Shown: piece after piece, positions 1,378-24,047 of the stretch
Layout: each line of letters begins with the position of its first letter
Numbering within the stretch: the first letter of the stretch is position 1
Sequence record: PZ496580.1
Source of the DNA: a phage
DNA: 64,000 nucleotides
Reading direction: 5' to 3' (one strand)
Made by a program: the position numbers and the translations under genes
The notes under the pieces: model-generated
The model's database searches: none
What the model saw: only the letters and a program-made list of their open reading frames with translations
What the model was told of the DNA's origin: nothing

Positions 1378-1388
1378 TATTAATACCT

Positions 1389-1616
1389 CTATTCAGTTAA
1401 TCCGTAATACTTTAATTGCTTCATTGTTATTCGATCTTTGTAGTGCTCTTGAATTAACTTTTTCATCGCATCAACATCGATCGTCACAAATACTTCGTTG
1501 CTGTGATTTCCGTGAACTTTCTTGAAATGCTCTATGCCTTCCTCACGTTCACGTTTAATCTTTTCAATGTCTCTCATAGTATATTTCTCACGTTGGCGGG
1601 TATCGTCACCCAACAC
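1389..1616 (-). CDS. hypothetical protein (sits where T4 has imm/42/beta-gt)
   Basis: 75-aa ORF between gene 43 and uvsX, co-directional; no motif recognised. Confidence 0.45.
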   Translation of the reverse strand: MLGDDTRQREKYTMRDIEKIKREREEGIEHFKKVHGNHSNEVFVTIDVDAMKKLIQEHYKDRITMKQLKYYGLTE

Positions 1617-1638
1617 CCGCCATTATACACACTTTATC

Positions 1639-4317
1639 TTAAATGTCAAACAGGTCAGTAAGCGATGCAACTTTTTCGTATTGCAGCTTTGCAGCCGTGG
1701 TAATGTTCTCCAGTGGTTTGACGAAAGTCTTATTGAACAACAAAGGCCAGTCCAACCACTTCAACACCTCTGATTCAATTTCTGGCGGAATACGAGTACC
1801 GGACAACCAACCAAAACAGATTTCTCCAAACGGATTTCGATCTTTAAGCGGTACAATCATAACCTTCTCGCCTTCACGAATCGGATCTAGTCCGAATTTT
1901 CTGGCATTACGATTATAACACAATACACTCTTAACCGCATACGGACAACCCTTAATCGGATACCCGTTTGAATCGCTGTATTTCTGTAGGTTGTTTGCAG
2001 ATGATACAGCAGCAACCTCAAGATAATCAAGTTTTCTAAATTCTTGCTCAAAAATACCGTAGTATTCCTGCAATGACTCTTCCCCTTCCTGCAACATACG
2101 GCGAATACATTCTTTCAGTGATTTCTGACATGCTTTAGGGGTAGAGCTACGTTGCGTTTCCAAGCCCATGATTTTTAGCTTAGGTTCAGCAAAGCGTGTT
2201 CCTTCCATATCCCAAACATTAAGAGCATAACGCTTTTTACCAGTCCAGAATCCACCGATACCCGCAGATTTCAACGGAGGACCAGCAATTGCCTCACGGT
2301 CCATAAACATCAAGTGCTCATAGTTGTTCATGTACTCGCATAACTCGCGATATCCTTTGTCGATAATCGGTTCCATTCGATGTTTACCGAAATTATCAAG
2401 GAAGTCAACAAGTTTTTCGGTATCGTCGAAACGATCTTCCCCGCCAACCTTATCAACAACATTGTTAACCAGCACATAAACGGAGTCAGTATCACAATAA
2501 CGAACATATGCAAAATCGGTTGTTCCGCAAAGCTCGTTTAAGTATTCGTTAATCTTACGTTCAATCCACTGAATTGCAAGCTGACCGAACAGTGTGATCG
2601 CACTAGCGTTACGGAGATCATAAAAACGGAATTTAGGATTCCCCAACGCACCATAGAGGGAGTTGATCAAAACTTTTCGAGAAAGCTGGTTTGTATTGCA
2701 CAAGATCGACTCGTCTTTACATTCTTCCAGCAATTTCTCTAAGGCATCTTTACTTAATTCAGAAAGCATCGATTTAAACGCTTCATCGAAGTCGTGACGC
2801 ACTTCAACGCTATAGCTAATGGTTCCCCCATAAACATGATTTTCATCGTGTAGAATCGCTTTACAGAGTTCAGCATTGCGATCACACGCCAACATCATGT
2901 TTTTGTACTGCTTACGCTGATCGAATACCTTTTTAATCTCAATCGGTACGATACCATGAATATCTTTTCGATACATCCACCCGTTAGGCGAGCAAGAATA
3001 CTCATCACTCGGACGTGGTGCAGTTTTATTGATATACTCGTGCATCGGTGCAGCATCAAAAGATCCAGCGATTGTTTCAGGCGAAATATTAACCTGTCGA
3101 ATAATAGATGGGTACAGACTTGTTAAGTCAAAGCTCATCATCCAACGGTAAGCATTCGGCACAGGTTCTTTTACAAATGCGCCCGGATACGTCTGCTTAG
3201 GCTGTATCTTATTTTCCGGTACTACTTTACCCTCAGCTTTCAGAGATCCGAAGATAATAGCATCCCATACTTTCATCGGGTTATAAACATGGTTAAATTT
3301 AATCTTTGCATAGAAACATAGGCTATACACCAGATCAATAAAGCCACGCTTTTTATCAATCGCCAGCACACGGTCAACGTCGCCGATGTTATAATCGATG
3401 TAAAGTTGATGGTTATCATCACGCAATTTCTTTAACGGACCATCATAATCAACCTTACCGATTCCTGTCTCATATTCAGCAACATAATCTAACGCATATG
3501 TTGGTTGAGTCGTAAAGCTAAATTTCTTGTACAAGTCAATGTAATCAAGGCTTTCGATCCCCATGATCGTAAATGCTTCACGCTCGTTGCCAAAATCATC
3601 CTGTGAGATTCGGGATTTAATCTTACCGCACGGGCTTAGACGGTTAGCGGTTCTACTTCCGAACTTATTACTGATACGTTTAATGATATATGGAATATCG
3701 AATGTTTCTGTGTTCCAGCCAGTGAAACCAACTGGTCGGTTTTCCTCAAAGAATCGGATGTATTCTAACAGCAATTCATCTTCTGTGTCATAGACGTTAT
3801 AAACAACGCGCTCTACAATATCAGGTCGAAGAATAGACTTGCTTGATTCCCAGATTTCACCGTTTTTTCCTTTCAAATCAAATACAAAGAAACGATCATG
3901 TACGGAATCATAATGCGTAATTGCATCGATGGGATATTTCGCTTCTTCTGGTTTAGGAAATTCCGGGGCAGTGACCTCAATATCAACCCATGCTACACGG
4001 ATTTTATTTCGGTCATATCGAATCTCGCCTTTATACGTATCGGACAGATAGGAGATGATAAAATCATCCATCCCTAATGCCTCTTGCCCCATTTCTCCCA
4101 TCTTTTTACGCCATTTGTTGGCCTCGTTCATAGATGGGAATTTTTTAGCAATGCAAGGCTTGCCATAGATATCTTTATAATTCGTAACCATACTCGGTGC
4201 GGCATGATGAAATAAAGTTGGCGTATATTCAACGTAACGCTCTTGTTCTTGTCCAGCATCATCAATATAACGCTCGTAGATCTTATCACCCACTCGCTCA
4301 CATGACAGAAAATACAT
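1639..4317 (-). CDS. 43: DNA polymerase gp43 (family B, with 3'-5' exonuclease)
   Basis: ~893 aa from ATG at 4317 (AAGGAG RBS 8 nt upstream); colinear with T4 gp43 (DIEV exo motif, SLYPSIIRQVNISPET, YCDTDS polymerase motif). Confidence 0.95.
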   Translation of the reverse strand: MYFLSCERVGDKIYERYIDDAGQEQERYVEYTPTLFHHAAPSMVTNYKDIYGKPCIAKKFPSMNEANKWRKKMGEMGQEALGMDDFIISYLSDTYKGEIRYDRNKIRVAWVDIEVTAPEFPKPEEAKYPIDAITHYDSVHDRFFVFDLKGKNGEIWESSKSILRPDIVERVVYNVYDTEDELLLEYIRFFEENRPVGFTGWNTETFDIPYIIKRISNKFGSRTANRLSPCGKIKSRISQDDFGNEREAFTIMGIESLDYIDLYKKFSFTTQPTYALDYVAEYETGIGKVDYDGPLKKLRDDNHQLYIDYNIGDVDRVLAIDKKRGFIDLVYSLCFYAKIKFNHVYNPMKVWDAIIFGSLKAEGKVVPENKIQPKQTYPGAFVKEPVPNAYRWMMSFDLTSLYPSIIRQVNISPETIAGSFDAAPMHEYINKTAPRPSDEYSCSPNGWMYRKDIHGIVPIEIKKVFDQRKQYKNMMLACDRNAELCKAILHDENHVYGGTISYSVEVRHDFDEAFKSMLSELSKDALEKLLEECKDESILCNTNQLSRKVLINSLYGALGNPKFRFYDLRNASAITLFGQLAIQWIERKINEYLNELCGTTDFAYVRYCDTDSVYVLVNNVVDKVGGEDRFDDTEKLVDFLDNFGKHRMEPIIDKGYRELCEYMNNYEHLMFMDREAIAGPPLKSAGIGGFWTGKKRYALNVWDMEGTRFAEPKLKIMGLETQRSSTPKACQKSLKECIRRMLQEGEESLQEYYGIFEQEFRKLDYLEVAAVSSANNLQKYSDSNGYPIKGCPYAVKSVLCYNRNARKFGLDPIREGEKVMIVPLKDRNPFGEICFGWLSGTRIPPEIESEVLKWLDWPLLFNKTFVKPLENITTAAKLQYEKVASLTDLFDI

Positions 4318-4349
4318 AATATAAACTCCTTCACTTACGAAAGACACTC

Positions 4350-6381: not shown

Positions 6382-7068
6382 TTAGTCGGTGTAGCTGGAG
6401 TCAAGGTCACACGCGATCATATAAGATACGGTTTCACTTGCCAGCCATACAGCCTTACGGCGAGTGAAGCTCAGTTTGTAATCGCCGAAGTCAGTAGCAA
6501 CCAGTTTCATGTTATCTTTACGAATAAAGAAATGGAAGTCGGCGGTTCCGGCATATTCGCCCATGTCAAGACAAAACATCTCATTCGGATTATTTTTGTC
6601 AATCTCTTCCCAGCCTTTGATCATAAGACGACCATCAATCGGAAGAAATTCAAGGCGGTCCACTTTAAGCTGATTGCTCATTTTCATAAGCTGTTTCAGA
6701 TCGTCGTTGCTCAGTTCGTAATCTACATCGCTTGCAGGTGGAGTAACTCGGCCTTTCGGTGATACGATAGCAGCAGCACTAGCACCAGGATAATTAATTT
6801 TCAGACGATCGTTAGACACACGAATGTTACCAGTGCGGTTATCAACCGTAATATCTGCTTCATCACCTACCAGATTCAGAATACCCAGGAAAGAGTTAAG
6901 ATCATAGATCCCAATTTCGTGTTCCAGTTCTTGATTCAGAGTCGCTTCACCATATACAACGTTTGTCATGTTTTTGGTGATCAGGACGTTTCCTTTTTTC
7001 AGGATGATACCTGGGTTAATAGCGGAAAAGTTTTTCAGGGTAGCAATGGTTTCTTTAGTAAGTTTCAT
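6382..7068 (-). CDS. 45: sliding clamp gp45
   Basis: 228 aa; recalled T4 gp45 similarity (LKNFSAINPGIILK, IYDLNSFLGIL); synteny 44-45. Confidence 0.9.
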   Translation of the reverse strand: MKLTKETIATLKNFSAINPGIILKKGNVLITKNMTNVVYGEATLNQELEHEIGIYDLNSFLGILNLVGDEADITVDNRTGNIRVSNDRLKINYPGASAAAIVSPKGRVTPPASDVDYELSNDDLKQLMKMSNQLKVDRLEFLPIDGRLMIKGWEEIDKNNPNEMFCLDMGEYAGTADFHFFIRKDNMKLVATDFGDYKLSFTRRKAVWLASETVSYMIACDLDSSYTD

Positions 7069-7098
7069 CAAATCACCTTTATCATGTTAATCAATTAA

Positions 7099-7497
7099 TT
7101 ATGGGTTTACTTTGTGCTCATTTTGAATCTTTAGCATTCTTTCGATAAATTTTTTCTCGGCTTCCTTGTCGGATGAGTGAGTATACTTCAATCCAATGTA
7201 AGCTGTCAAGTATTGTTGCAGAGCATAGACAGTAACAGGATTCTTTGCGGTCTTTTTGCCGTCGAGATATACCAGATCACCACGAACATCAAACGCAAGT
7301 TTACGACGAATCACGTCATCAACAAATTTATCTAGGACAAAATACCACTCAATACATTCTATCCCGTGACGGTAGTTCATTACATCATTATCTTTGATAT
7401 AGTCAAACGGAATATGACATAATTTACGATTTTGTAGTATGAATAGCATTTGTTCTTTTAAGCTCATACGTTTCATTCTATCACTTCCCATCAGCAA
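7099..7497 (-). CDS. hypothetical protein at the rpbA position
   Basis: 132-aa ORF between 45 and 46; no diagnostic motif. Confidence 0.5.
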   Translation of the reverse strand: MLMGSDRMKRMSLKEQMLFILQNRKLCHIPFDYIKDNDVMNYRHGIECIEWYFVLDKFVDDVIRRKLAFDVRGDLVYLDGKKTAKNPVTVYALQQYLTAYIGLKYTHSSDKEAEKKFIERMLKIQNEHKVNP

Positions 7498-7873
7498 TTG
7501 CGATCAGACGAGTTACTACTACGCTAGCGGCTTCAATCAGCAGTTCATCAGTGTCAATCTGATAACCTTTTTCGAGAATATCTTTACCACGAATAGTTTT
7601 AGCGCCTTTAGCAATTGAATCATCGTAATACTTGCGCATTGCAGCGATCCATTCTTTTTGCACCATATCATCAATATGCGCGTACAGTTCAAAGCGTGCT
7701 TGCTGCGGGATAACCTTCATTTTAGCTTTCTCGCTTTCCGGCATTTGCAGTACCCACGCTTTACGGATCTTGTTCATTGCTCGGTCAAATTCGAGGCTGG
7801 TTTTCTTGTTCTGAATGTCTGCTACAGTAATTTTAGCCAGGTTTGCGGAAGTAGTCATAATATTAATCTCCAA
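7481..7873 (-). CDS. hypothetical protein
   Basis: 130-aa ORF, co-directional early array. Confidence 0.5.
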   Translation of the reverse strand: MEINIMTTSANLAKITVADIQNKKTSLEFDRAMNKIRKAWVLQMPESEKAKMKVIPQQARFELYAHIDDMVQKEWIAAMRKYYDDSIAKGAKTIRGKDILEKGYQIDTDELLIEAASVVVTRLIAIADGK

Positions 7874-9788: not shown

Positions 9789-10032
9789 TAATCCACTCCG
9801 CAATCACACATTCCATAATATTAAATGCTAACACATCTTCATCAATGTTGTAAACACTTGCCGCCTTCACTTTAACTAATGTGTCTCTGCGATCTGGCAA
9901 CATGATAACATAATCCAGTGTCGCCGGATCATATGTCATAAAGGGGTCAATATAAACCCCTTTATTCAATGCCAGATATTCGCGAAGACCTTCTATAACC
10001 CTGTGTCTAAGGTAGGTCATCGATAGAATCAT
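9769..10032 (-). CDS. hypothetical protein
   Basis: 87-aa ORF between 47 and 46. Confidence 0.45.
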   Translation of the reverse strand: MILSMTYLRHRVIEGLREYLALNKGVYIDPFMTYDPATLDYVIMLPDRRDTLVKVKAASVYNIDEDVLAFNIMECVIAEWINGKVKF

Positions 10033-10619
10033 TTTAGTTTATGTTCCTCTAAAAATTCTTCAATTTCACCTTGCAGGTCTTCCGCTTGCTGTTCCAGAAT
10101 ATCGCGAAATTCACCTACAGTCAAGCGGTAATCACATTTCACCAGTCGATGCGGGAGAATATACCCTTTATACATTGTCTCTGACGCTTCCAGGAATACC
10201 CCGCTATGCATGACGGAGATCCAACCTGTTAACGTCAATGGAGTATTCGGAAAATAATACTTGCTGGATTGTTTCCACTGGACGAAAGCACCATATACAA
10301 TCGGATTATATTCACCAACCACACTCTTAATAATGGATTCTACTTTGTCTTTTACAAATACGCCCATATCCATAGTGGTCATCAATTCTTGTGGATGAAT
10401 CACTTTAAGGTAACGACGATAGTCATCATCATAATACAGCTTAACTACTGGTTCACCCCACATAGACGAAATATTCGCTTTCAGATATCCATAAATCGGA
10501 TTCTTATCATAGGATTGTTTTAGCGTGTAGGTATGCAACAGCGTAATAAAATGTCGCATTACCAGTTTATCTGGATCAACCGCGCCCATAGTCGTATTCA
10601 TAATATGTTCCTTTCTCAA
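10029..10619 (-). CDS. hypothetical protein
   Basis: 196-aa ORF between 47 and 46. Confidence 0.5.
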   Translation of the reverse strand: MRKEHIMNTTMGAVDPDKLVMRHFITLLHTYTLKQSYDKNPIYGYLKANISSMWGEPVVKLYYDDDYRRYLKVIHPQELMTTMDMGVFVKDKVESIIKSVVGEYNPIVYGAFVQWKQSSKYYFPNTPLTLTGWISVMHSGVFLEASETMYKGYILPHRLVKCDYRLTVGEFRDILEQQAEDLQGEIEEFLEEHKLK

Positions 10620-10899
10620 TTGCTTCTTGTTTCAGGTCTTCTAACATTTCATCAATAGCTTGTTTCAGCATATGACGCAGAGTAAAGTAGTAGTGTTCAT
10701 CAAATTCTATTTCTCGACGGGGAATAGAACGGAACTTACATTTAACGACTGTATCAGTCATTCGTTTTTCGACCAACATACGCACTTCTTGATGTTCTTT
10801 AGAATACCAGACCATCACATGCATATCTTTACGGCGAGCGAACATAGGCAAAGACGCATTAAACCATATTACCTTTTGTGCAAGTGTAAGGGTTTTCAT
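10576..10899 (-). CDS. hypothetical protein
   Basis: 107-aa ORF. Confidence 0.45.
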   Translation of the reverse strand: MKTLTLAQKVIWFNASLPMFARRKDMHVMVWYSKEHQEVRMLVEKRMTDTVVKCKFRSIPRREIEFDEHYYFTLRHMLKQAIDEMLEDLKQEAIEKGTYYEYDYGRG

Positions 10900-11159
10900 A
10901 GTACAGACTCCATAGATCCACGCGCAATAACATTCTGGGTGATATCAGCAATCTTACGGGATACGATGTTTGTTAGCCCTTCTTTGGTGATATTTTCACG
11001 ATCAAATGGGATTTCGTCATGAGTCCACAAACCATAGTTAGATCGAAATGATAGCATATACTGACCATCTCGCACAACCTCAAATACATGGATCTTAGTG
11101 AATTTCGATAAACCTTCGTTGATTTCTTTCAGTGCATTAGTAATCATAACAACCTCCAA
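10896..11159 (-). CDS. hypothetical protein
   Basis: 87-aa ORF directly downstream of gene 47. Confidence 0.45.
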   Translation of the reverse strand: MEVVMITNALKEINEGLSKFTKIHVFEVVRDGQYMLSFRSNYGLWTHDEIPFDRENITKEGLTNIVSRKIADITQNVIARGSMESVL

Positions 11160-11200
11160 TCAATTTTAGAGAGTATAACGGGGATTTCTCCCCGCGTCAA

Positions 11201-12226
11201 CTAACTTTTTGCGCTATTTACTTCGGCTAAAAGTTCATCAGAAATACGCTTGACCGCCGCAAGTTCTTCCGGTTCTAGGTTTTGTTCTTCCAGATATTCA
11301 TAGACCATCTGAATAGTGCTTTTAACTTCAATAACACCTGTTTCCTGTGATGCGCTACTCTCCAGTTTATGGACCACTTTTAGCTTGTGTACAACGGCCT
11401 CTAACGCGCTTTCTAACTTAGTTAACCCATTATCAGCGACCGTTGCGATAAGACGCACACTAAGCCCCTTAAAGCGTTCTACATCGATTTTATCATCTGA
11501 CGGGTAAGTGATACGCACATGATAAGTTTTGTCATTCTGAATAAACTCTTTTTTGTGTGTATCGGTATCGAATACCCAAAAACCACGCGGATCGTTTTCG
11601 TCACCCGCCGTTAGTGTGTATGGTGTACCGATATACGTTACGTTACCCCCATCACTAATAGTATGAAAATGACCAGAAAACACTTCACGGTATTTCTTGA
11701 GGAAGTCCGCGCTATAACCTTCGGATTTTAGCCCTTTATAGAAATAGTAACCGGACAATTCCCAATGGCCTACACAATATTCGCTGAATGAGTTTTGAAT
11801 AAACTCTAAAATCTCTGATTTATTGTCATCACAAAACCACGGGAACAGATCAAATGATACACCATCAAAGGTAACTGTTTCTGGTTTATCAATAACCTTA
11901 ATACAATCATACTGGCTTAACACTTCACGCGGTGCGTTAGGCTGGATCTTGTTTCGTTTAAACATATCATGATTCCCGACCGTGATATAACAAGTAATAC
12001 CAGCCTCTTCCAGTAGCGGGATGATTTTCGTTCTATTAAAACGCATAGTTGCATGTGTGATTGCTTTTCGGCAATCAAACCAGTCCCCTGTCTGAATCCA
12101 TGCCTTAATATTATGTTTTTTTGAATAATCGACTGCCTTTTTAATAGTATCAAGAATATACTCATGTATCCACGGATCATCGTTGCCGATACCAGTATGC
12201 AGATCACCCAAAAGCAAAATTTTCAT
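11201..12226 (-). CDS. 47: recombination endonuclease subunit gp47 (SbcD/Mre11-like phosphoesterase)
   Basis: MKILLLGDLHTG and GNHD metallophosphatase motifs; colinear with T4 gp47. Confidence 0.9.
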   Translation of the reverse strand: MKILLLGDLHTGIGNDDPWIHEYILDTIKKAVDYSKKHNIKAWIQTGDWFDCRKAITHATMRFNRTKIIPLLEEAGITCYITVGNHDMFKRNKIQPNAPREVLSQYDCIKVIDKPETVTFDGVSFDLFPWFCDDNKSEILEFIQNSFSEYCVGHWELSGYYFYKGLKSEGYSADFLKKYREVFSGHFHTISDGGNVTYIGTPYTLTAGDENDPRGFWVFDTDTHKKEFIQNDKTYHVRITYPSDDKIDVERFKGLSVRLIATVADNGLTKLESALEAVVHKLKVVHKLESSASQETGVIEVKSTIQMVYEYLEEQNLEPEELAAVKRISDELLAEVNSAKS

Positions 12227-12241
12227 ATTATACATAATCTC

Positions 12242-12796
12242 CTAAAAATTTTTAACACCATATTCACCAAAATAAAGATCAACCGCTTTGTCATAAGCTC
12301 TGGCCGCATCTTCTTCGTTGACATAATACCCAAGAGATATTAGTTTATCATTATTTCGTATTCTTGCAACCCATTTCTTCGTATGTTTATGCCAGCTAAC
12401 CCCTTTATACTTGCTTGCTTTATTCTTGTACTTTCCAACGTTACAAGCATTTTTCTTTGCGTCGGACTCTCTAAGATTGCGCGGTGCGTTGTTTAAAGGA
12501 TTTCGGTCTATATGATCTATAATTTCTGGTTGTGTTCCATGCTCAAGAAACCATACAATACGATGTACATATGGCTTTAAAACCCTCCCATTATCCATAA
12601 CAATTGCAATTTGGAGATGATCCTGACTTTTAAAAGTTTTTACTTTATCTCCTGCCTTATAAAACTTTCCTTCGTAATTCTTTCCTCCGGCTCGGCTATT
12701 CTTTAAATGATAAAGAATACCATCGTCGTCATGTCTATATCTTTCTCGTATAATTCGTTGCGTTTCTTCATCCCACAATTTGGAACGTCTACTCAT
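12242..12796 (-). CDS. HNH homing endonuclease with C-terminal AP2 DNA-binding domain
   Basis: HNH core IDHIDRNPLNNAPRNLR; AP2-like YKGVSWHKHTKKWVARIRNNDKLISLGYYVNEEDAARAYDKA; free-standing 6 nt upstream of gene 47. Confidence 0.8.
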   Translation of the reverse strand: MSRRSKLWDEETQRIIRERYRHDDDGILYHLKNSRAGGKNYEGKFYKAGDKVKTFKSQDHLQIAIVMDNGRVLKPYVHRIVWFLEHGTQPEIIDHIDRNPLNNAPRNLRESDAKKNACNVGKYKNKASKYKGVSWHKHTKKWVARIRNNDKLISLGYYVNEEDAARAYDKAVDLYFGEYGVKNF

Positions 12797-12837
12797 AGTC
12801 TCTTCCTCTCTTCGTTTTCGATGCTCTCACTATATCA

Positions 12838-12864
12838 CAGAAAAATAAAAAGGGAAACCCCTTT
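12838..12864 (-). terminator. candidate intrinsic terminator (weak stem plus T-run)
   Basis: minus strand gaaagggGTTTccctttttattttt. Confidence 0.35.
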
Positions 12865-12886
12865 CAGAGTCTCCCTTATAAAGCCA

Positions 12887-13174
12887 TTACAGCATACTTA
12901 ATACCGTTTGCCGTGTACTAACCCACATAGCAGAAAGCAGTTCTGGCGTGTGTGGCTGTTTGTAGATATCACGTAATTTTCCGATAGCGTAGATATACGC
13001 ATCACGGTTATCATCGATGATAGCTTGTTCAGCCCACCTCTTAAGGCGTGCAATCTCTCGCGAGTTCTTACGCAAGATCTTTTCCGCTTTCTTAGCGGCT
13101 TTCGCCTCTAGTTCTGCTTGTACTTTGTCTACTTCATTCACTACAATCTGGTCATGTTGTTCATCGTAAGTCAT
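12887..13174 (-). CDS. hypothetical protein
   Basis: 95-aa ORF, lysine/alanine-rich helical segment. Confidence 0.5.
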   Translation of the reverse strand: MTYDEQHDQIVVNEVDKVQAELEAKAAKKAEKILRKNSREIARLKRWAEQAIIDDNRDAYIYAIGKLRDIYKQPHTPELLSAMWVSTRQTVLSML

Positions 13175-13175
13175 A

Positions 13176-13409
13176 TTATTTTCCTTCTGGGATATAGTCG
13201 ATGATTAAAGAAAATTCATCTTCTGATACATTATAGCTATGTGAGATTGTACCCGTAAAGACCTCAAGGTCCGGTGATTTGATATTGCACGGATCGATAA
13301 TCACCGGAACGCCGCAATCTCTCAAAAATAATTTGGCGAAATACGGCACAAGGTCAGTTTCAAACTCTGCTTCTTCCAGCAAACGGGAAATGTTAATTTT
13401 CAATCTCAT
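13176..13409 (-). CDS. hypothetical protein
   Basis: 77-aa ORF immediately downstream of gene 55. Confidence 0.45.
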
Positions 13410-13926
13410 AAAATTGGTCCAGGCTAGGCAATTCCTCGGTCAATACATCTTCAACCTTTGGCGCTTTCGGTTTATTGACCGATTCCTCGTAGTTGTTGAT
13501 TTTATCGTAAATGTCCTGTATGAATGCCTCATCCGCAATCTGGCACATATCAGCGTCGCGTTCGTCATATACATGATGCACAAAATATTTGTATTTTGCG
13601 GCGGTTGCTGTTCTTTCTTTTTTAATGCGCTGTACAAAGGCATTAAAGCACGCTTGCGTAATGTAAGCATGAGGATTTTTATACTTTGTCTCGTCAAAAT
13701 TAATCAAACCCTTGACCGCCGCTTCGATTCCATCGTCGATCATTTCTTCGCGCCACGTTTGACTATAGCCAGAAAAGTTAAAACGCCGTGATAGATTTTT
13801 AGAGATTTGCATAATTGCTAGGCCGATTTGGTCGCTCATTGGCACTTGTCGACCTTCGGCTGCAATTCGTTGTTTCCAACGGCAAATTTCTTCGTAAAGC
13901 TCTTTATTGTTTACATAATCAGACAC
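13393..13926 (-). CDS. 55: late-promoter sigma factor gp55
   Basis: 177 aa; recalled T4 gp55 similarity ([55 protein letters not shown]). Confidence 0.9.
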
Positions 13927-15903: not shown

Positions 15904-16162
15904 AAATCGCCCTCAGTTCTTTATAGCCTCCAATGTGCTCGTTGTCAATGAATATCTGGGGGTATACAAATCGGAGGCTCTTTGAGTTCAGCCTCCCCGC
16001 CAGTTCTTCAATCATATCACGGTCGGGAATAATGTCAACCCCAACCTGCTTGAATACTGGTTTAAGTGTATACGGAATACCCAGATCATCCAGTAGCTTC
16101 ATTGCACTAATACAACCATAACAATGATAAGCCTCTTTCGGTATACCGTATATCTCGATCAT
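15893..16162 (-). CDS. nrdH: glutaredoxin-like protein (NrdH-type redoxin)
   Basis: 89 aa; CYGC active site and YPQIFIDNEHIGGY glutaredoxin signature. Confidence 0.75.
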   Translation of the reverse strand: MIEIYGIPKEAYHCYGCISAMKLLDDLGIPYTLKPVFKQVGVDIIPDRDMIEELAGRLNSKSLRFVYPQIFIDNEHIGGYKELRAIYDY

Positions 16163-16665
16163 TTCTCAGCCTTTAATCTTTCTAGTTCTTCTTCCAGTTC
16201 CTTAATGCGCTTCTCGCGTTCAATATCACGTTGGATCTTAGTGGCGAATACTCGTTTAAACTGACTATAGTCATCAATTTTAAATACTTCCTCTTCACCA
16301 TATCGACGTACAGAAACTTCGTAGTTGTTGAAAAATTGTTCCAACATTGCATCAGTGGTCAGTTCTGCCGATACCACTTTAAAATGACGTTCTTCTGATT
16401 GCAAAAACCAGTTGTGCGCGTATTCCCGTACATCATCAACATTGCGGCAGGTGTATACCGTGCCATCAATTTCAATCGCAGAAACATAATCATCATCCGA
16501 TGCATGGTGATCAAATGCAATAACTTTAAATGGACGGTCGCCGATAAACTCTGCTATTGCATCATTTGCAACGCTAAAGTTTGCAAAATCTTTTCTCGTT
16601 TTCTTATCTTTCCACTGATAGGTCACGCCAGCAACAAACATATTACCATCCTCGCTCTTTACCAA
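16159..16665 (-). CDS. paralog-family protein (member A1), C-terminal coiled coil
   Basis: GVTYQWKDKKTRKDF ... RPFKVIAFD ... IEIDGTVYT module shared with neighbouring ORFs. Confidence 0.6.
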   Translation of the reverse strand: MVKSEDGNMFVAGVTYQWKDKKTRKDFANFSVANDAIAEFIGDRPFKVIAFDHHASDDDYVSAIEIDGTVYTCRNVDDVREYAHNWFLQSEERHFKVVSAELTTDAMLEQFFNNYEVSVRRYGEEEVFKIDDYSQFKRVFATKIQRDIEREKRIKELEEELERLKAEK

Positions 16666-17467
16666 TCAAAAATTCAACTTCACGACGTTTAATGTCTTCT
16701 TGAAGGTCTTTAATCTTCTGTCGATCTTGCATGATTTCGTCCATCTTGTCAAGTGCTGCAATGAAATCATCGAAACGTTCAAAGGTTTTACCTTCATTTG
16801 CTTCGCTAAATTTAACCATAGTCAGACCGTAACGACTACTAAACAGACGTTTCAACTGTCCAACGATCTTAGAATCAGTGGTTATAACTTCCAATTCTTC
16901 TACTTCTTGAAAGAATTTTCTATCAGAATCAATAAACCAGCTAGTTCCTTTATGGTCTCTATCTCCGGTTGCGCTCATTAGAGTATGGTCTTTACCATCA
17001 ATTTCAATTACATCAATTTGCCCACATGGACTAACATTTTTAACAGTAAAAGGTCTATAATTTATTGCTCGTGCAATAACATAATTAAGGTTAGATACGT
17101 TTTCAGCATAATGGCAGAAGTCGGTCATAGCCTTCGCATCTTTCCAAGTATAAGTTTTACCAACTTCCCATTTCTGGGGAACTTCTTCAACTTCACGAAA
17201 GAATTTTCTATCGAATGGACTAAAGAAATATGTTGCAGTCCAAATGTCTTTTCCTGTAGCAGTTTTCGCCGTATGATAAACACCGTCTAGCTCTATTGCA
17301 TTAATCCAACCGTTACCCTCGATCTCGATGATGGTAAATGGCTTGTCACCAATAGCTGCACTAATATCGCTGTTAAGTGGAGAAAGAACACCTTCTCCGT
17401 TAGTAATAAACTCAGTTTTAGCGTTTTCATCTTTCCAAGTGTAAGTTTTACCAATTTCCCATTTCAT
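16643..17467 (-). CDS. paralog-family protein (member A2, two tandem copies of the module)
   Basis: WEIGKTYTWKDENAKTEF and WEVGKTYTWKDAKAMTDF repeats each followed by ..PFT.. IEIDG .. DRKFF.EVEE. Confidence 0.6.
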   Translation of the reverse strand: MKWEIGKTYTWKDENAKTEFITNGEGVLSPLNSDISAAIGDKPFTIIEIEGNGWINAIELDGVYHTAKTATGKDIWTATYFFSPFDRKFFREVEEVPQKWEVGKTYTWKDAKAMTDFCHYAENVSNLNYVIARAINYRPFTVKNVSPCGQIDVIEIDGKDHTLMSATGDRDHKGTSWFIDSDRKFFQEVEELEVITTDSKIVGQLKRLFSSRYGLTMVKFSEANEGKTFERFDDFIAALDKMDEIMQDRQKIKDLQEDIKRREVEFLIGKERGW

Positions 17468-18498: not shown

Positions 18499-19008
18499 TC
18501 AAATAATTTTCACTGGAATACTATTAACAATCTTGTATTGTACTTGATTGTCGGACCCCCGCCACGGCTTCTTCGTTGGCATATCTTTAATATAACGCCC
18601 ATCGATGAACATGTCAACCGATTCTACAATTTTTCTTTGCTCATCATTCAATTGGTCAAGGGTATAACCAGACCATAGCCAAATATCTTTATTTGGCATC
18701 CATGATTTTACTTCATCGATGATCCGCTGTACACCCTTTAAATTGCGTTTATACAGTGGATCGCCACCTAAGAATGTTAGCCCCTGAATAAAATCAGGTC
18801 TAAGCAGATCCAGAATCAATCCCATTGTATCATCAGTGAATGGTTCCCCGTTCTTAGGATTGAGTAGGCTAGCATTAAAGCAACCATCACATGCGTGTGA
18901 ACATCCGGTAACGTAAAGGGAGACTCTCACTCCCTCACCGTTAACCATATCACAATCTTTAATATCGGCATAGCGTAGTTTGCCGTATGTATCAGAACTC
19001 ATATTCAA
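18499..19008 (-). CDS. nrdG: anaerobic ribonucleotide reductase activating protein NrdG (radical SAM)
   Basis: CSHACDGC radical-SAM cysteine triad, GGDPLY, WRGSDNQ; colinear with T4 NrdG. Confidence 0.9.
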   Translation of the reverse strand: MNMSSDTYGKLRYADIKDCDMVNGEGVRVSLYVTGCSHACDGCFNASLLNPKNGEPFTDDTMGLILDLLRPDFIQGLTFLGGDPLYKRNLKGVQRIIDEVKSWMPNKDIWLWSGYTLDQLNDEQRKIVESVDMFIDGRYIKDMPTKKPWRGSDNQVQYKIVNSIPVKII

Positions 19009-19219
19009 TTACCCCAAACTCGTTTACAATCTGCGCTTTATAGTATCCACCGCGAGATGCTAATAGATAAGCCGGGCTTAGGTATTCGTATTCACGGATT
19101 TCTACTTGTGCGTTTTCAGTTTCCCAAATCAGTAAAGTCCACATATTTGATTCTCCTGTAAAGTTGTATCTCGTCTTGATGAATATAGTATAGGGGATCT
19201 CTCGATCCCCGTCAAGCAT
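18992..19219 (-). CDS. hypothetical protein
   Basis: 75-aa ORF. Confidence 0.45.
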   Translation of the reverse strand: MLDGDREIPYTIFIKTRYNFTGESNMWTLLIWETENAQVEIREYEYLSPAYLLASRGGYYKAQIVNEFGVIEYEF

Positions 19220-19549
19220 TTATTTTAAATTTTTTCGAATGTATTCAGACCATTCCTTCCCTGTCAGTTCGGTCCCATTCTGGAAACTGAAATATTCATA
19301 CGGCATAGAGTCAAGATAAAACAGGATCATACATCGCGCCATATAATACCAATCACGATTAAAGTAAACTACGTTATCACCAGTACCATCAGCACCTTTA
19401 TCATAACCATCGCGGGTACGGGCGACCCATTGAATAGTATCATTTTTCTCACGGATAGTAACAGGTTCCCAATATCCAGCACCATCCAGCATGACCACAC
19501 GAACAAGTAAGGAAATATTGGCCTTTTGATTTGTTGTCATCCCATTCAC
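19220..19549 (-). CDS. hypothetical protein (overlaps upstream ORF by ~100 nt; possible frameshifted single gene)
   Basis: 109-aa ORF; track start codon is not ATG (first ATG a few codons in). Confidence 0.4.
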   Translation of the reverse strand: MNGMTTNQKANISLLVRVVMLDGAGYWEPVTIREKNDTIQWVARTRDGYDKGADGTGDNVVYFNRDWYYMARCMILFYLDSMPYEYFSFQNGTELTGKEWSEYIRKNLK

Positions 19550-19769
19550 GATGGATTGGTTCGATCTCGTGAAACAGTGCTAAACAATCATGATTATGCA
19601 ACACTGGCTTACCATCAATCAATGCATGGAATGTATACAAACGACCAGTAGACAAATAGCTGTCCTCACGCTCAACCAGTTCAATAGCAATCTTTTTAGC
19701 TCGTTCCTTGTGTCGTTGTGCTTTACGCTTACGGTTTAATGATTTCATATTCACCTCACACATTATCAA
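19449..19769 (-). CDS. hypothetical basic protein (C-terminal 30 aa look out-of-frame)
   Basis: 106-aa ORF; Cys/Trp-rich tail CSCGHAGWCWILGTCYYP overlaps the next ORF. Confidence 0.4.
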   Translation of the reverse strand: MIMCEVNMKSLNRKRKAQRHKERAKKIAIELVEREDSYLSTGRLYTFHALIDGKPVLHNHDCLALFHEIEPIHREWDDNKSKGQYFLTCSCGHAGWCWILGTCYYP

Positions 19770-20311
19770 AGGTCGCGATATAGTACATTATGAAAATGAG
19801 AACTTGCATTACCAATATTGTAGATAATAAATTCTTCATCCGGCGCTTGCGCTACAAATTGAGTATGAGCAACCGCTACAACCTTAAAAATACGATCCGT
19901 GATCTTGTGTTTAATTTCTGTTCCTACTTCCATAGGAACATATTCATGTGTTTCTGTTTCAGTCGCAAAACAGCCATCTTCTTCATAAGCACGAACAAAT
20001 CGATCGCAATCAGTACGCTTAACAAATTCAAGAGTATATAATTCTCGTGAATTGTCGGTATAAACCAACACAGAATTATTCTGATAGCGAATCACATACA
20101 GGTTATTATCATCGTCAATTACGCAAAAGCTACGGATTTGTGTTCCTTCGCCTTTACTCCAGCAGATATTAACCACCGTTCCTCTAATAAAAAAACTTTC
20201 CTTTAAATTAAAACTAGCCAATGTGCTAGCGTGCATTTTAACAACAACACCATCGCCAATTTCCAGTTTACGAAGTTTAACTTCTTTGCTCAGCACACAA
20301 AACATCATCAT
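19766..20311 (-). CDS. hypothetical protein
   Basis: 181-aa ORF downstream of a promoter cassette. Confidence 0.55.
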   Translation of the reverse strand: MMMFCVLSKEVKLRKLEIGDGVVVKMHASTLASFNLKESFFIRGTVVNICWSKGEGTQIRSFCVIDDDNNLYVIRYQNNSVLVYTDNSRELYTLEFVKRTDCDRFVRAYEEDGCFATETETHEYVPMEVGTEIKHKITDRIFKVVAVAHTQFVAQAPDEEFIIYNIGNASSHFHNVLYRDL

Positions 20312-20340
20312 GTTGTCCTCTCGTTGTTTTCGATGTGAGC

Positions 20341-20369
20341 ATTATACATTAGCTAATCAGGTTGTCAAC
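20341..20369 (-). promoter_or_regulatory. early sigma70-type promoter (TTGACA-17-TATAAT)
   Basis: minus strand TTGACAacctgattagctaatgTATAATgctcacatcgaaaacaacgagagg. Confidence 0.6.
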
Positions 20370-20373
20370 ACCT

Positions 20374-20406
20374 AAAAACGAAAAAGCCGACCCTTTCGGA
20401 TCGGCT
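20374..20406 (-). terminator. intrinsic terminator after nrdD
   Basis: minus strand agccgatccGAAAgggtcggc followed by tttttcgttttt. Confidence 0.7.
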
Positions 20407-20411
20407 GAAAA

Positions 20412-22274
20412 TTACATGTGCTTAACGCGGTTTACCATCTCGGAATGTTTCCCGTGGTTAAATGGACGCAGATCAACAGATCCAAGATATCCACTAACGC
20501 GACGGATAACATTCATTTTTTCCAGATTATCATTTCCGCAATCAGGGCAAACAAAACCAGACTCGGTCGCTCTCATTTCCTTAGTAGATCCGCATACATG
20601 ACACACATCAGAAGGGGTATTAACACCGAAGTAGTGCAATTTATCCATTGCATAGTCTACTACAGTTTCAAGCCCTTTAATGTTGTTTTTCATGTCTGGA
20701 AACTCAACATAAGAGATCATGCCACCGGACGCCAGCCAGTGATAGTCTTTCTCAAAGTCGATTTTCTCAAACGGTGTGACTTTCCGGTCTACGTCAAGGT
20801 GGAATGAGTTGGTGTACCAGTCTTTATCGGTAGCACCCTTAACAATACCAAATTGCTCTCGGTCCAGTCGATTAAATCGATAGCAAAGGCTTTCGGCTGG
20901 CGTACCGTAAAGACTAAACCCAAGTCCGGTTTCGTCCTTCCATTTTTCAGTATAATGACGCAAGATCTTAAGAATATGTTTACCGTATCGCTGCGCATCT
21001 TCCGAATCAAACGGATGAACACCAAACAGGACGCTCAATACCTCATGTAAACCAATATACCCAAGAGAGATACTAGCGCGACCATCTTTCAACACTTCCA
21101 AAATTTCATCGTTTTGATGAATACGGAAAAATGCACCTTCGGTATACAGTACAGGAGCAACATTGGCTTTAGCGCCTTTTAAAGCGTCTACGCGACTCAT
21201 GAGCGCATCAAAACAAATAGGCATACGATTAGCTAGCTCTTGTTCGAATAGCTCAATTCTGCGCATTACAGACGCTTTACCAGCACGACGCGCGGCAATA
21301 AGGGCAATACGCGGAAGATTCAGAGTAACAACACCTAAGTTATTACGTCCGTCTAATACTTCTTCGCCTTTCTCATTATGCCACACACCCAGGAAGCTAC
21401 GACAACCCATCGGGCTAACCGGAACACTAGATCCAGTGATACTACGGTTATTCTTCGCAGAGATATAATCAGGGTAAAGACGCTTACTAGAACATTCCAA
21501 TGCAAGTTGTTTAATGTCGTAGTTCGGATCTTCCGGTTTAAGGTTTAATCCTTCTTCTAAGAACATCACCAGCTTAGGAAACACCGGAGTTATACCATCT
21601 TTACCTAAACCTTTAGTTCGAACTTTCAGGATCGCTTTCTGAATCAGTTTTTCTTCCCAGCTAGTACCCATACCAAATGTTAAAGTCACAAAAGGTGTTT
21701 GACCGTTGGTGGAGAACAAAGTGTTGATTTCATATTCCAACGCCTGATACCCGTCTAGCGTTTCTTTTTCTGTCTTCTCTTGTGCATAGAGAGTATCAGC
21801 TTTGATTCCGTAGGTTTCGGCATCAGCAAGGTGTTTATGATATGTTTTCTCAACATACGGTGCTAACACCTGATCGATGTTTGCAATTGTGGTCCCGCCA
21901 TATTGATGACTTGCCACCTGTGCGATAATTTGAGCGGTTACAGCACAAGCAACGCCGATTGATTTCGGACTTTCGATTTGTGCGCTACCCAATTTAAAAC
22001 CATTCTCTAGCATGTCTTTTAGATTAACAAGACAGCAGTTAGTAAACGGCATAGCGGGTGCATAATCCATATCATGATAATGAATATCACCGTCTACATG
22101 CGCTTTATAGATGTGCTCAGGTAACACGGTTTTAGCAATCTGTTTAGACACAGCGCCAGCAATCAGATCTCGACGTGTCGGGAATGTTCGCGCGTCTTTG
22201 TTCGCGTTCTCTTTGCTTACTTCGTTTTCTTTACCCGTTGCGATCTCTGTAATGTCTTTGATTAGTTTTTCCAT
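20412..22274 (-). CDS. nrdD: anaerobic ribonucleoside-triphosphate reductase NrdD (glycyl radical enzyme)
   Basis: 620 aa; C-terminal Cys-rich zinc ribbon CHVCGS..CPDCG and glycyl-radical RVSGY motif; uninterrupted (no intron). Confidence 0.92.
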   Translation of the reverse strand: MEKLIKDITEIATGKENEVSKENANKDARTFPTRRDLIAGAVSKQIAKTVLPEHIYKAHVDGDIHYHDMDYAPAMPFTNCCLVNLKDMLENGFKLGSAQIESPKSIGVACAVTAQIIAQVASHQYGGTTIANIDQVLAPYVEKTYHKHLADAETYGIKADTLYAQEKTEKETLDGYQALEYEINTLFSTNGQTPFVTLTFGMGTSWEEKLIQKAILKVRTKGLGKDGITPVFPKLVMFLEEGLNLKPEDPNYDIKQLALECSSKRLYPDYISAKNNRSITGSSVPVSPMGCRSFLGVWHNEKGEEVLDGRNNLGVVTLNLPRIALIAARRAGKASVMRRIELFEQELANRMPICFDALMSRVDALKGAKANVAPVLYTEGAFFRIHQNDEILEVLKDGRASISLGYIGLHEVLSVLFGVHPFDSEDAQRYGKHILKILRHYTEKWKDETGLGFSLYGTPAESLCYRFNRLDREQFGIVKGATDKDWYTNSFHLDVDRKVTPFEKIDFEKDYHWLASGGMISYVEFPDMKNNIKGLETVVDYAMDKLHYFGVNTPSDVCHVCGSTKEMRATESGFVCPDCGNDNLEKMNVIRRVSGYLGSVDLRPFNHGKHSEMVNRVKHM

Positions 22275-22319: not shown

Positions 22320-22814
22320 TTATTTTACCAGTTCTGCTAATTCTTTTTCTTTAGCTTCTAGTTCAGCTTTAAGCTGTTTAATCTCTTGTCGCTTCTTATT
22401 AGCGGCTTCTTGCTTACTATTTCGGATAACCTGATCTAGATACAACTCCCAATCCTGAATATTTTTGATAATGTAACCGTCAACATTAATTGGTCGGAGA
22501 TTCAGTACAGCTTCCAGTTTAGTTGCAAAAACTTTAATTGCTGGGGTGAAGTATTCATATTCGTTATCTTCAAACCAATAACCTAGACTTGCATTATCAA
22601 TACGAAGACGAAGTTCAAGATCAAGGTCTTTATCTTCGGTGTATAGGTCTTTTACACCCCCCATCGAACCAACAACAACTTTAAAACGAATTTTATCAAC
22701 ACCACCAAACACATCAGTAAGGATACCAGCAATTGAGCTATTAGCGCAAGATTGGTCGCTGAATGCGTCAAGGTTTTCTTTAGTTACAGTATACCAAACA
22801 TCTTGTTTCCACAT
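22320..22814 (-). CDS. paralog-family protein (member B1), C-terminal coiled coil
   Basis: WKQDVWYTVTKENLDAFS module resembling the A-group; KQLKAELEAKEKELAELVK tail. Confidence 0.55.
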   Translation of the reverse strand: MWKQDVWYTVTKENLDAFSDQSCANSSIAGILTDVFGGVDKIRFKVVVGSMGGVKDLYTEDKDLDLELRLRIDNASLGYWFEDNEYEYFTPAIKVFATKLEAVLNLRPINVDGYIIKNIQDWELYLDQVIRNSKQEAANKKRQEIKQLKAELEAKEKELAELVK

Positions 22815-22844
22815 AATATAATCCTCTCGTTGTTAAGTGGGAGT

Positions 22845-22872
22845 ATTATAGCATACTCCCTTTGCATGTCAA
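22845..22872 (-). promoter_or_regulatory. early promoter (TTGACA-16-TATAAT) with -10 inside GGGAGTAT/ATACTCCC inverted repeat
   Basis: minus strand TTGACAtgcaaagggagtatgcTATAATactccc. Confidence 0.55.
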
Positions 22873-24047
22873 GCACGAACTTTTTTCTTTACTGCTTTCA
22901 CCTTCTGGCGAATTGCTCGAATCTCTTCGATCTCTTTTTCAGTCTCTTTAACAATTTCTTTGCGATTCTGAATATCTGTATCGAGATTATCATCAAGTTT
23001 AGGCAGCATGTCAATCAAGAACTTTTTAAAGTCTTTCAGGTTTCGGATAACAGCACCTTCACCCATTACCGCCACCCCTACACCATCCGGTAGATCACCA
23101 AACAGTTTAACCAGTTCAGACAGATGATCATGATCTTCTAGTGCTTCTTCCGGTTCAGATGGTAGTTCAACAAAGTAATAGCGTTCATCATTGCTGATCA
23201 GGTGATACCAGCAAAGCCCAAAAGATTTAGGAGTATATTCTACACCATCAACTTCAACCGCGTCAACACTTCCGAAAGAATCTACTTTAGTTACCTTAAA
23301 TCCGTGTTCCAGCTTTTGAACAATTTCAATAACATGACTGGATACGGTTTCAGTGTTAAACCAATGAGGCAAATTATGTGGATTTGGTTTGTAGCGTTCG
23401 CCCACTTTAAATCTCTGACCACGCTCTTGCATACGGACATATTCAACTCGCGTTATTTCCGCGAAGTATTCAAATTCGCTACCGTCAAACACACAAGCCC
23501 ATTGATCACAAAAACGATCCGCCTTAACAGTTTCACCTTTCGCGGTGATCATGGTAGCCGATCCGTGAAATTCTTCTTCAACTAAAAAGCCATATTCGAC
23601 AAAATCAACAAGTTTCATGGCTTCTTTGTGCTCTGGATCATGCTCTCCCCAGAATCGCTTAAATTCTTGCAAACCTTCCGGGGTAAACGAATAACATTTA
23701 CCTTTTTCAAAGTAAGTCGGCATTGCATCCTCTTTCTTGTTCATCGCTTCGTATGTCTCTTTTGAGATACGTTTAAAGTATTTGCGCTCATTGTGCATAA
23801 TCATAGTAGCCCAATAATCCACAATATCATTAGCGGAATAAACTACATCTCCAGCTTCAATAGTAATAACATGACCGTGGTCATCTTTTTCTAATACTTT
23901 AAAGCCCTTTTCTACGATTTCAGCAACCCGAATATGACCACGGCGCGAAGCATCAGTCAGAATAATTGAATAGCGAGAAAAGTCTAGAAACTCATCTTTA
24001 CCGCCTTCACGGAATGCATAGTAATGCCCTTCAAAGAATTTAGCCAT
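22869..24047 (-). CDS. paralog-family protein (member B2, several tandem copies of the module)
   Basis: 392 aa; repeated Y.F...GFKVL...G.V..IE..G..Y...ERKYFKRISK units. Confidence 0.6.
   Translation of the reverse strand: MAKFFEGHYYAFREGGKDEFLDFSRYSIILTDASRRGHIRVAEIVEKGFKVLEKDDHGHVITIEAGDVVYSANDIVDYWATMIMHNERKYFKRISKETYEAMNKKEDAMPTYFEKGKCYSFTPEGLQEFKRFWGEHDPEHKEAMKLVDFVEYGFLVEEEFHGSATMITAKGETVKADRFCDQWACVFDGSEFEYFAEITRVEYVRMQERGQRFKVGERYKPNPHNLPHWFNTETVSSHVIEIVQKLEHGFKVTKVDSFGSVDAVEVDGVEYTPKSFGLCWYHLISNDERYYFVELPSEPEEALEDHDHLSELVKLFGDLPDGVGVAVMGEGAVIRNLKDFKKFLIDMLPKLDDNLDTDIQNRKEIVKETEKEIEEIRAIRQKVKAVKKKVRA

Follow-up and report, generated by a model that had tools for sequence, protein, structure and literature searches.

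A putative HNH-AP2 homing endonuclease gene on the start codon of gene 47 in an RB49-like coliphage, with a linked gene 47 haplotype

The window analysed here, a 64,000-nucleotide stretch of phage DNA (record PZ496580.1), carries on its minus strand an open reading frame (ORF) of 184 codons plus a stop at positions 12242..12796, identified from the ORF list, Pfam, PHROG and relatives as a homing endonuclease gene equivalent to RB49 ORF040c (RB49p040). The translation begins MSRRSKLWDEE and ends GEYGVKNF. The ORF has its own start and stop codons and lies between a-gt.4 and gene 47, the latter being intact. Gene 47 (11201..12235, minus strand) encodes a Mre11/SbcD-like recombination nuclease subunit, as indicated by its Pfam Metallophos domain, a match to PHROG 100 at 1.7e-125 (labelled 'SbcD-like') and the RB49 annotation. 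Upstream of the endonuclease gene, a-gt.4 (DUF2654; 12887..13174), a-gt.5 (13176..13409) and gene 55, which encodes the late sigma factor (13393..13926), were identified using Pfam and PHROG. The endonuclease gene has a G+C content of 36.2%, compared with 40.1% for the window. A search for a second copy within the window returned only a chance-level match inside nrdD (E=2.4), which was dismissed.

The initial annotation, made from the sequence alone, had assigned the 184-aa ORF to positions 12236-12886 and left its strand unstated; the ORF is indeed present, and the range additionally takes in a 6-nt spacer and the upstream intergenic region. The ORF had also been described as ending 6 nt before gene 47. 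Its stop codon, TAG (12244..12242), is followed by GAGATT and then by ATG TAT AAT ATG AAA, so the spacing is correct for the first in-frame ATG (12235; MYNMKILL...), whereas the start conserved in all relatives is the ATG at 12226, 15 nt past the endonuclease stop. The 3.2 kb around the ORF matched 59 phage records at 93-98% identity, all of them from Krischvirus (RB49-like coliphages). According to these nucleotide matches, the phage is a Krischvirus ('pseudo-T-even', RB49-like) and not a T-even phage proper, as had first been assumed.

Both the HNH and the AP2 motif quoted earlier were found in the ORF translation, and the domain search that had been proposed as a check placed both Pfam domains above their curated cut-offs: HNH_3 (PF13392) at residues 76-117 (E=1e-11, 44.7 bits against a cut-off of 24.8) and AP2 (PF00847) at residues 128-171 (E=2.4e-10, 41 bits against 33.3). 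PHROG 99 ('HNH endonuclease') matched residues 8-183 at 1.4e-50. Three regions were delimited, all encoded on the minus strand: an I-HmuI-like domain of beta-strands at the N-terminus (residues 1-75; 12572..12796), which probably contacts DNA; the HNH catalytic core of the beta-beta-alpha-metal type (residues 76-120; 12437..12571), defined by Pfam, conserved columns and the I-HmuI alignment and comprising H78, D94-H95, N103, N107-L108-R109 and N116; and the C-terminal AP2 DNA-binding domain (residues 128-184; 12245..12415). A homologue search over 5.8 billion proteins yielded 93 homologues, most of which contain PF13392 and PF00847 together. Conservation was read from an alignment of 45 sequences, in which D94, H95 and N107 are invariant and H78, N103, L108, R109, N116 and N119 are conserved in at least 90%.

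The profile built from these 45 sequences matches I-HmuI (PDB 1U3E) with E=1.8e-11 over the N-terminal beta domain and the catalytic core, and the VDH...NLR...N of the endonuclease aligns with I-HmuI residue for residue. The absence of HNH catalytic residues had been named at the outset as evidence against a homing endonuclease; D94/H95/N107/N116 are all intact and aligned to D74/H75/N87/N96 of I-HmuI, with D94/H95 corresponding to its Asp-His general base pair and N116 to its Asn metal ligand. The same profile also matches plant AP2 domains (WRI1, 1e-23; TEM1, 1e-11). An AlphaFold model computed on the alignment (pLDDT 91.1, pTM 0.82) resembles a solved HNH_3, I-HmuI-like member in fold, and its AP2/ERF domain, above the curated threshold in sequence, forms a three-stranded sheet packed on a helix. 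This domain is 35-42% identical to the AP2 domains of Arabidopsis WRI1 and TEM1 and superposes on them at 1.3-1.6 Å, although the plant proteins are transcription factors without a nuclease domain, unlike the window protein. Given the profile matches to I-HmuI and plant AP2 domains and the confident model, we regard the protein as an I-HmuI-like nuclease, its activity being predicted, with an AP2 domain as the C-terminal DNA-binding module. I-HmuI itself, from Bacillus phage SPO1, is an intron-encoded HNH nicking enzyme, whereas the gene here is free-standing, and its C-terminal helix-turn-helix DNA-binding module takes the place that the AP2 domain occupies in the window protein. The window protein belongs to the HNH-AP2 homing endonuclease class, reportedly described by Magnani et al. 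and Wuitschick et al. in 2004, in which, as here, an N-terminal HNH domain is combined with a C-terminal AP2 domain.

The endonuclease gene looks functional by its pattern of sequence conservation, which speaks for purifying selection. The five window-type copies contain nine variable nucleotides, with variable codons divided into 6 synonymous and 3 conservative nonsynonymous (D25E, I80V, A164V), and all three domains are conserved at full length among the phage paralogues. One metagenomic copy has an extra T (a 1-nt insertion) in the terminal T-run, which changes the C-terminus and lengthens the ORF by five codons.

Judged by its sequence, the window gene is the already published and annotated HNH-AP2 homing endonuclease gene of the RB49 ORF040 type. 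Its product is 100% identical to those of JK32, MIZ4 and MIZ5, annotated as 'homing endonuclease' or 'HNH endonuclease', and 98.9% identical to RB49p040 (NP_891611; annotated as 'putative endonuclease; similar to HNH endonuclease; DNA-binding AP2 domain'), from which it differs by two conservative substitutions (D25E, I80V). RB49 ORF040c and its orthologues in JK32 and MIZ4/5 (98.9-100% amino acid identity) occupy the same site and have an identical gene 47 junction. Nolan et al. (2006) included RB49ORF040c, with its AP2 and HNH domains, among putative mobile elements and referred for the AP2-HNH class to Magnani et al. 2004 (PMC1524935), Arbiol et al. (2010) placed ORF040 among the RB49-specific genes in a comparison of RB49 with phi1 (PMC2839356), and Petrov et al. 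(2010) counted one HNH-AP2 gene in RB49 (PMC2993671). Because the window gene is identified with RB49 ORF040c, which was published between 2006 and 2010 as an AP2-HNH putative homing endonuclease without a copy in phage phi1 (PMC1524935, PMC2839356, PMC2993671), the gene was already known. In the papers found on RB49 ORF040c there is no description of the start-codon junction, of the gene 47 haplotype linked to the gene or of a second allele at the site, and the literature searched contained no cleavage or homing experiments on the window protein or on any HNH-AP2 enzyme of T4-like phages.

A comparison of this interval in related phages had been suggested with the initial annotation, which held that universal presence of the ORF would argue against a mobile gene. 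The ORF is carried by only 5 of the 59 Krischvirus records (JK32, MIZ4, MIZ5 and RB49 twice), whereas the remaining 54 align in two pieces with the ORF missing between them. In 53 of the 59, the same upstream sequence continues straight into gene 47; in phage phiS, the place is taken by a different HNH-AP2 gene. A presence/absence polymorphism at one locus with conserved flanks, as looked for in intronless homing, is thus found among close relatives. Alignment with Phi1 and anchor-to-ATG distances define a 570-bp insert (12227..12796, minus strand) relative to phages without the gene, its boundaries being ambiguous by 4 nt because ATGA is common to both ends. The distance from an upstream anchor to the gene 47 ATG is longer by exactly 570 bp in four carriers and by 0 in 10 of 10 non-carriers, the measurements having been made on representatives of every identity class (Phi1, GoldenSnicker, Delraymugoa, JSE, kaaroe, SSG23, Makalu_002, ELT3, 011D4 and PHB13). 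All ten empty sites are clean fusions, and none contains remnants of the endonuclease gene. In an alignment of Phi1 with the window, RB49 and phiS, ...GAGGAAGAGACT of Phi1 runs directly into ATGAAAATTTTG (the gene 47 start), whereas in the window ...GAGGAAGAGACT runs into ATGAGTAGA... (the endonuclease start) and the ATGAAAATTTTG of gene 47 returns 570 nt later, after TTT TAG GAGATT ATG TAT AAT. The difference of 570 bp against 0 places the insert, by alignment, exactly on the start codon of gene 47. The initial proposal, an HNH-AP2 homing endonuclease gene that is free-standing and was inserted upstream of gene 47, is therefore supported, with the correction that the insertion lies at the start codon itself and is not simply intergenic. 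Comparison with the empty site further indicates that the insert consists of the ORF and 15 nt only and does not lie inside an intron or intein. Apart from the common ATGA, no direct or inverted repeats were found at the insert ends (12227, 12796).

The position of the insert affects the translation signals of both genes. The native ribosome-binding site of gene 47, GAGGAAGAG (12800..12808, minus strand), immediately precedes the ATG of that gene in all ten of the non-carriers measured; in carriers the identical sequence stands before the ATG of the endonuclease gene. Read from this sequence comparison, the ribosome-binding site and ATG that originally belonged to gene 47 now serve the endonuclease gene. 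At the other end, in the last 15 nt of the insert, the endonuclease stop overlaps a TAGGAG (12239..12244, minus strand), a putative new Shine-Dalgarno sequence that phages lacking the gene do not have, gene 47 being served there by GAGGAAGAG. We infer that TAGGAG is the replacement ribosome-binding site of gene 47; with this site supplied by the 3′ end of the insert, gene 47 would still be expressed.

A terminator-like hairpin upstream of the ORF had been taken as typical of such an insertion. Scanning and folding confirmed a terminator-like hairpin with a T-run after a-gt.4 (12846..12877, minus strand), with a 12-bp stem and a GAAA loop at 12877..12850 followed by TTTATTTTT, while the 94-nt spacer as a whole folds no better than shuffled sequences (z = -1.24). 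Phages without the ORF have the same hairpin in unchanged form, and the annotations of Makalu_002 and GEC-3S label it as a terminator. Since it is equally found in these relatives, it is part of the conserved a-gt.4/47 flank and not a mark of insertion. A consensus scan of the a-gt.4/47 spacer detected no promoter for the endonuclease gene. By eye, a possible extended -10 element, TGATATAGT, can be read in this spacer at about 12829-12837, and nothing in the analysis rests on it.

Carriers and non-carriers also differ within gene 47. We aligned 23 kb of eight relatives to the window. Outside the block that surrounds the gene, carriers resemble the window no more closely than non-carriers do (about 97-98% in both), and the mosaic variable patches elsewhere in the 23 kb are independent of the presence of the gene. 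At nt +42..+111 of gene 47 (12116..12185, minus strand), however, SNP tables revealed one haplotype in the four aligned carriers and another in the non-carriers, with fixed differences at 16 of 70 positions (probability of at least 16 of 70 at a background of 3%, 2e-10). Most of these 16 differences are at third codon positions, and the amino acid changes in the patch relative to most non-carriers are G15N, V20I, E33D and E37K. In BLAST searches with the 127-bp segment 12100-12226, the five carrier records matched at 99.2-100% and the other 54 at 81.9-87.4%, so that the association between gene and haplotype is perfect across the 59 records; a metagenomic carrier (L030) has the same gene 47 haplotype. 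No linked differences were found upstream of the gene (12797-12900).

By comparison of sequences, carriers thus have the co-inherited flanking markers and/or target-site differences expected in intronless homing, and the patch is a candidate for a one-sided co-conversion tract and/or an altered target site that confers immunity. It would be equally expected from repair of a break within gene 47 or from a need of carriers for an uncut target variant. The cut made by a free-standing phage endonuclease lies at a distance from the endonuclease gene, and flanking markers are co-converted; a variant, uncut target in carriers is likewise an established feature of such enzymes (PMC2988022). The stretch between the insert and the patch, nt +1..+41, is essentially identical in carriers and non-carriers, and the tract is therefore no simple contiguous block of foreign sequence; unless the stretch is constrained, this identity is unlike a simple contiguous co-conversion from a divergent donor. 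The linked haplotype could also reflect tight physical linkage within a recombination block of ~0.7 kb with no role in targeting or immunity. Likewise, the independent carriers number only about five and all have one haplotype, which one ancient insertion and subsequent ordinary recombination may have produced. Searches for a donor yielded no donor lineage: an IMG/VR scan with the window protein returned one match at 42%, and among 39 loci at up to 45% identity, obtained from JGI metagenomes with an alignment of phage paralogues, none had a gp46 or gp47 homologue within 2.5 kb.

The site is also occupied by a second gene. In phiS, gp018 is a different 184-aa HNH-AP2 ORF with the same left junction on the gene 47 ATG, and its 574-bp insert brings its own ribosome-binding site for gene 47. 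A protein identical to phiS gp018 was found at the same site in four further metagenomic contigs, with pig gut among their sources (P0002 cluster). This gene shares family, length, left junction and Asn15 in gp47 with the window gene, and differs from it in the 574-bp insert, in the flanking gene 47 haplotype and in protein sequence (47-48% identity). The phiS gene was ruled out as a close allele of the window gene, as 48% is the level of identity to paralogues at other loci. Family members are present at five or more other Krischvirus loci, including sites between genes 2 and 3 (phiS), near gene 34 and rnh (a truncated fragment in KFS-EC), after the endolysin gene (JSE), between the primase gene and gene 56 (ELT3) and after gene 39 (W115), and at one further locus in related phages, downstream of gene 46 (RB16 and Slopekvirus). 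The paralogues are 41-50% identical to one another, with higher values for the truncated KFS-EC fragment (57-58%) and for RB16/Matisse (86%). The HNH-AP2 genes of RB16 and Klebsiella Slopekvirus were considered as occupants of the same site in other genera and ruled out because of their location downstream of gene 46.

Only at codon 15 of gp47 (12182..12184, minus strand) do both endonuclease types differ in nucleotide sequence from all the non-carriers examined: the codon is AAC (Asn) in the window type, AAT (Asn) in the phiS type and GGC (Gly) in non-carriers. The change from Gly15 to Asn turns the GC-rich ATCGGTGGCGATG into ATCGGCAACGATG or ATTGGTAATGATG, such that GGTGGCG in the gene 47 of non-carriers becomes GGCAACG or GGTAATG in carriers. 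Codons 14-15 adjoin the sequence encoding Mre11 motif I. A passage in PMC10448857, citing Magnani 2004, reports that AP2 domains prefer GC-rich sites, and on account of this preference we propose the GC-rich stretch at codons 14-15 as part of a putative recognition site. It is conceivable, if on balance improbable, that the gene 47 start is the homing site of two divergent HNH-AP2 enzymes (48% identity) which would recognise one stretch at codons 14-15 and would both be evaded by Gly15Asn.

Taken together, we consider it highly probable that the window carries a free-standing HNH-AP2 homing endonuclease gene which sits on the gene 47 start codon and spread by intronless homing with co-conversion, its nuclease activity being predicted. 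The comparisons that point to this reading are the domain architecture, the intact catalytic residues, the presence/absence polymorphism, the exact junction, the linked one-sided haplotype and the second gene at the same site. If the predicted nuclease is active and the gene still mobile, then in a mixed infection with a Krischvirus lacking the gene the enzyme would nick or cut the empty allele, probably within the initial ~110 nt of gene 47, near the GC-rich ...ATCGGTGGCGATGATCC... that encodes Gly14-Gly15. I-HmuI-type HNH enzymes are typically nickases, and the lesion may accordingly be either a nick or a double-strand break. The phage recombination machinery would repair the break from the endonuclease-carrying genome and would thereby copy in the gene together with the adjacent 5′ piece of gene 47, which amounts to intronless homing with co-conversion. 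Carrier genomes would be protected because their gene 47 holds the divergent patch, including the change from Gly15 to Asn.

Several other explanations of the locus were weighed against homing. The gene might be a decayed or domesticated relic that arrived once by homing, has since lost its mobility and is kept either neutrally or for another use, such as an AP2-type regulator, a nuclease against host or competitor DNA, or help against host defence. The near identity of the window-type copies and their single flank haplotype fit one historical event, the metagenomic copy with the 1-nt insertion has an altered C-terminus, and passages in PMC13096335 and bioRxiv 10.1101/2025.09.07.674715 report a part for phage homing endonucleases in immune evasion. 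However, neither the catalytic residues nor any of the three domains has decayed, all of them being conserved; variation is mostly synonymous, a protein needed by the phage would not be missing from 54 of 59 close relatives, and the presence of a second, divergent member of the family at this site speaks for invasion that is repeated or still continuing. A relic therefore fits poorly and appears unlikely. Another reading that fits poorly is an endonuclease-bearing state ancestral in Krischvirus, with precise deletion of the gene in most lineages. Cycles of invasion, decay and loss are to be expected of homing endonuclease genes, and a clean-fusion empty site could be reproduced by recombination with any empty allele; against this, the gene is absent from 54 of the 59 records, the carrier patch is about 23% divergent compared with a genome background of 2-3%, which points to import from a more distant donor, and two deeply divergent endonuclease genes occupy the same site. 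We regard ancestral presence as extremely improbable.

Mechanisms other than homing could also generate presence and absence, namely shuffling of promoter/stem-loop (PeSL) cassettes, other illegitimate recombination or transposition. Arbiol et al. (2010) ascribed many RB49/phi1 indels to PeSL recombination, with ORF040 being specific to RB49 (PMC2839356), and a stem-loop with the possible extended -10 read by eye (TGATATAGT) is located about 50-80 nt upstream of the ORF. Yet the insert boundaries are at the gene 47 ATG and not at the stem-loop, which is single, lies about 50 nt outside the left joint and is unchanged in phages without the gene, and no second cassette or direct or inverted repeat was found at the other boundary. 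PeSL cassettes are thus not located at the recombination joints, as they would be in a shuffling module, and the one-sided divergent patch in gene 47 is predicted by break repair from a donor rather than by cassette exchange. An IS-like transposable element was ruled out, as there are no terminal repeats beyond ATGA and no transposase domain in Pfam or PHROG. Without repeats at the insert ends, the transposon and PeSL-cassette readings find no support and were rejected, and an origin of the polymorphism by such processes in place of homing is very improbable.

Intronless homing of the HNH-AP2 gene has parallels among known phage systems. The T4 genes segF, segG, segB and mobE encode free-standing enzymes, lie beside conserved DNA-metabolism genes, are patchily distributed and have flanking markers that travel with them (PMC2988022), and the window gene behaves likewise. 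The T4 Seg enzymes belong to the GIY-YIG family and the Mob enzymes are HNH proteins with other C-terminal domains, in contrast to the HNH-AP2 architecture of the window protein; Petrov et al. also keep 'mob-like HNH' and 'HNH-AP2' as separate categories (PMC2993671). A further difference from the T4 enzymes is that, by alignment, the linked tract begins only about 40 nt from the insertion point, and that cleavage is predicted here. The 'IPA-HNH' HNH domains of ICP1 are too divergent for Pfam HNH_3 (PMC10448857), whereas the window protein has a canonical HNH_3 domain.

The gene itself adds little, as it is a published and annotated HNH-AP2 homing endonuclease of RB49-like coliphages, and the details added here are modest, namely the junction at the start codon, the patch of gene 47 that is perfectly linked to the gene, the Gly15Asn common to the two same-site types, and the position of the hairpin outside the element. 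Many isolates of Krischvirus are candidates for phage therapy, and for the genomics of such phages these details explain one 570-bp difference that recurs and a local mosaic patch within gene 47. The locus also constitutes an experimental system, since carrier and empty alleles exist in cultured phages that are otherwise 97-98% identical, with RB49, JK32 and MIZ4 as carriers and Phi1, JSE and many others lacking the window gene, and since it offers a short candidate target interval of ~110 nt in gene 47, one substitution as a candidate for immunity, and another, divergent enzyme encoded at the same position. A phage ancestry has been proposed for the plant AP2 DNA-binding domain, and the recognition sequence of a phage AP2 domain, readable from its target, bears on this proposal. 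If the shared-target reading of the two same-site enzymes is true, they would form a natural matched pair for studying the evolution of AP2-domain specificity. The locus would then exemplify a selfish element that alters the recombination gene on which it depends, in its translation start as well as in its protein sequence, and Gly15Asn would change the very nuclease subunit that resects breaks during homing.

In the 23-kb alignment of the window with eight relatives, mosaic patches were found at window positions 7001-7500, 16001-17000, 19001-20500 and 22501-23500, each with at least two haplotypes among Krischvirus genomes, as illustrated by the split between 81% and 98% identity at 7001-7500. 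The haplotypes of the four regions assort independently, both of one another and of the endonuclease gene. Judged from these sequence patches, such independent assortment indicates that recombination among Krischvirus genomes is frequent.

The greatest divergence of any stretch in this alignment lies at window 10001-11000, where identity to nearly all eight relatives is 82-93%, compared with approximately 97-98% elsewhere. Two small ORFs are located here, between genes 46 and 47 (10029..10619 and 10576..10899, assigned to PHROGs 16328 and 15856), and the low identity implies that the version of them found in the window is an uncommon allele. Directly downstream of gene 47, a sigma-70-type promoter was predicted on the minus strand at 11172..11200, with a good match to the consensus (TTGACG, a 17-nt spacer and TATACT); the annotation of GEC-3S places a promoter at the equivalent position. 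Within gene 47 itself, a second divergent haplotype block was observed at window 11951-12092 (nucleotides about +135 to +275). This block is common to JSE and phiS, and in part to Delraymugoa, and is unlinked to the presence of the endonuclease gene.

A variant of the window-type endonuclease gene was found in a metagenomic carrier contig (L030; ENA contig k141_58148, positions 3440-3475), in which the terminal T-run contains one extra T. The TAG stop is consequently lost and the ORF is lengthened by five codons, ending 1 nt ahead of the gene 47 ATG. The extra T could reflect either genuine variation or a mistake in the assembly.

The DNA polymerase gene 43 is split, being present as two ORFs, in JK32, MIZ4 and JSE (positions 1130-2308, 1130-2308 and 1780-2308 of the respective sequences). 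In the first two of these phages an ORF occupies the gap, annotated as NUMOD3 in JK32 and as an HNH endonuclease in MIZ4. The window gene 43 (1639..4347) is intact, forming a single ORF of approximately 900 aa, as it does in RB49. In JSE, an ORF annotated as "homing endonuclease" interrupts nrdD (19027-21649); in the other relatives, as in the window, nrdD is uninterrupted. In RB16 (positions 781-3570 of its sequence), gene 46 is flanked by two putative homing endonuclease genes, one placed between genes 47 and 46 and the other after gene 46. Given these two genes, the 46/47 neighbourhood of T4-like phages is one that has been colonised repeatedly, at differing sites.
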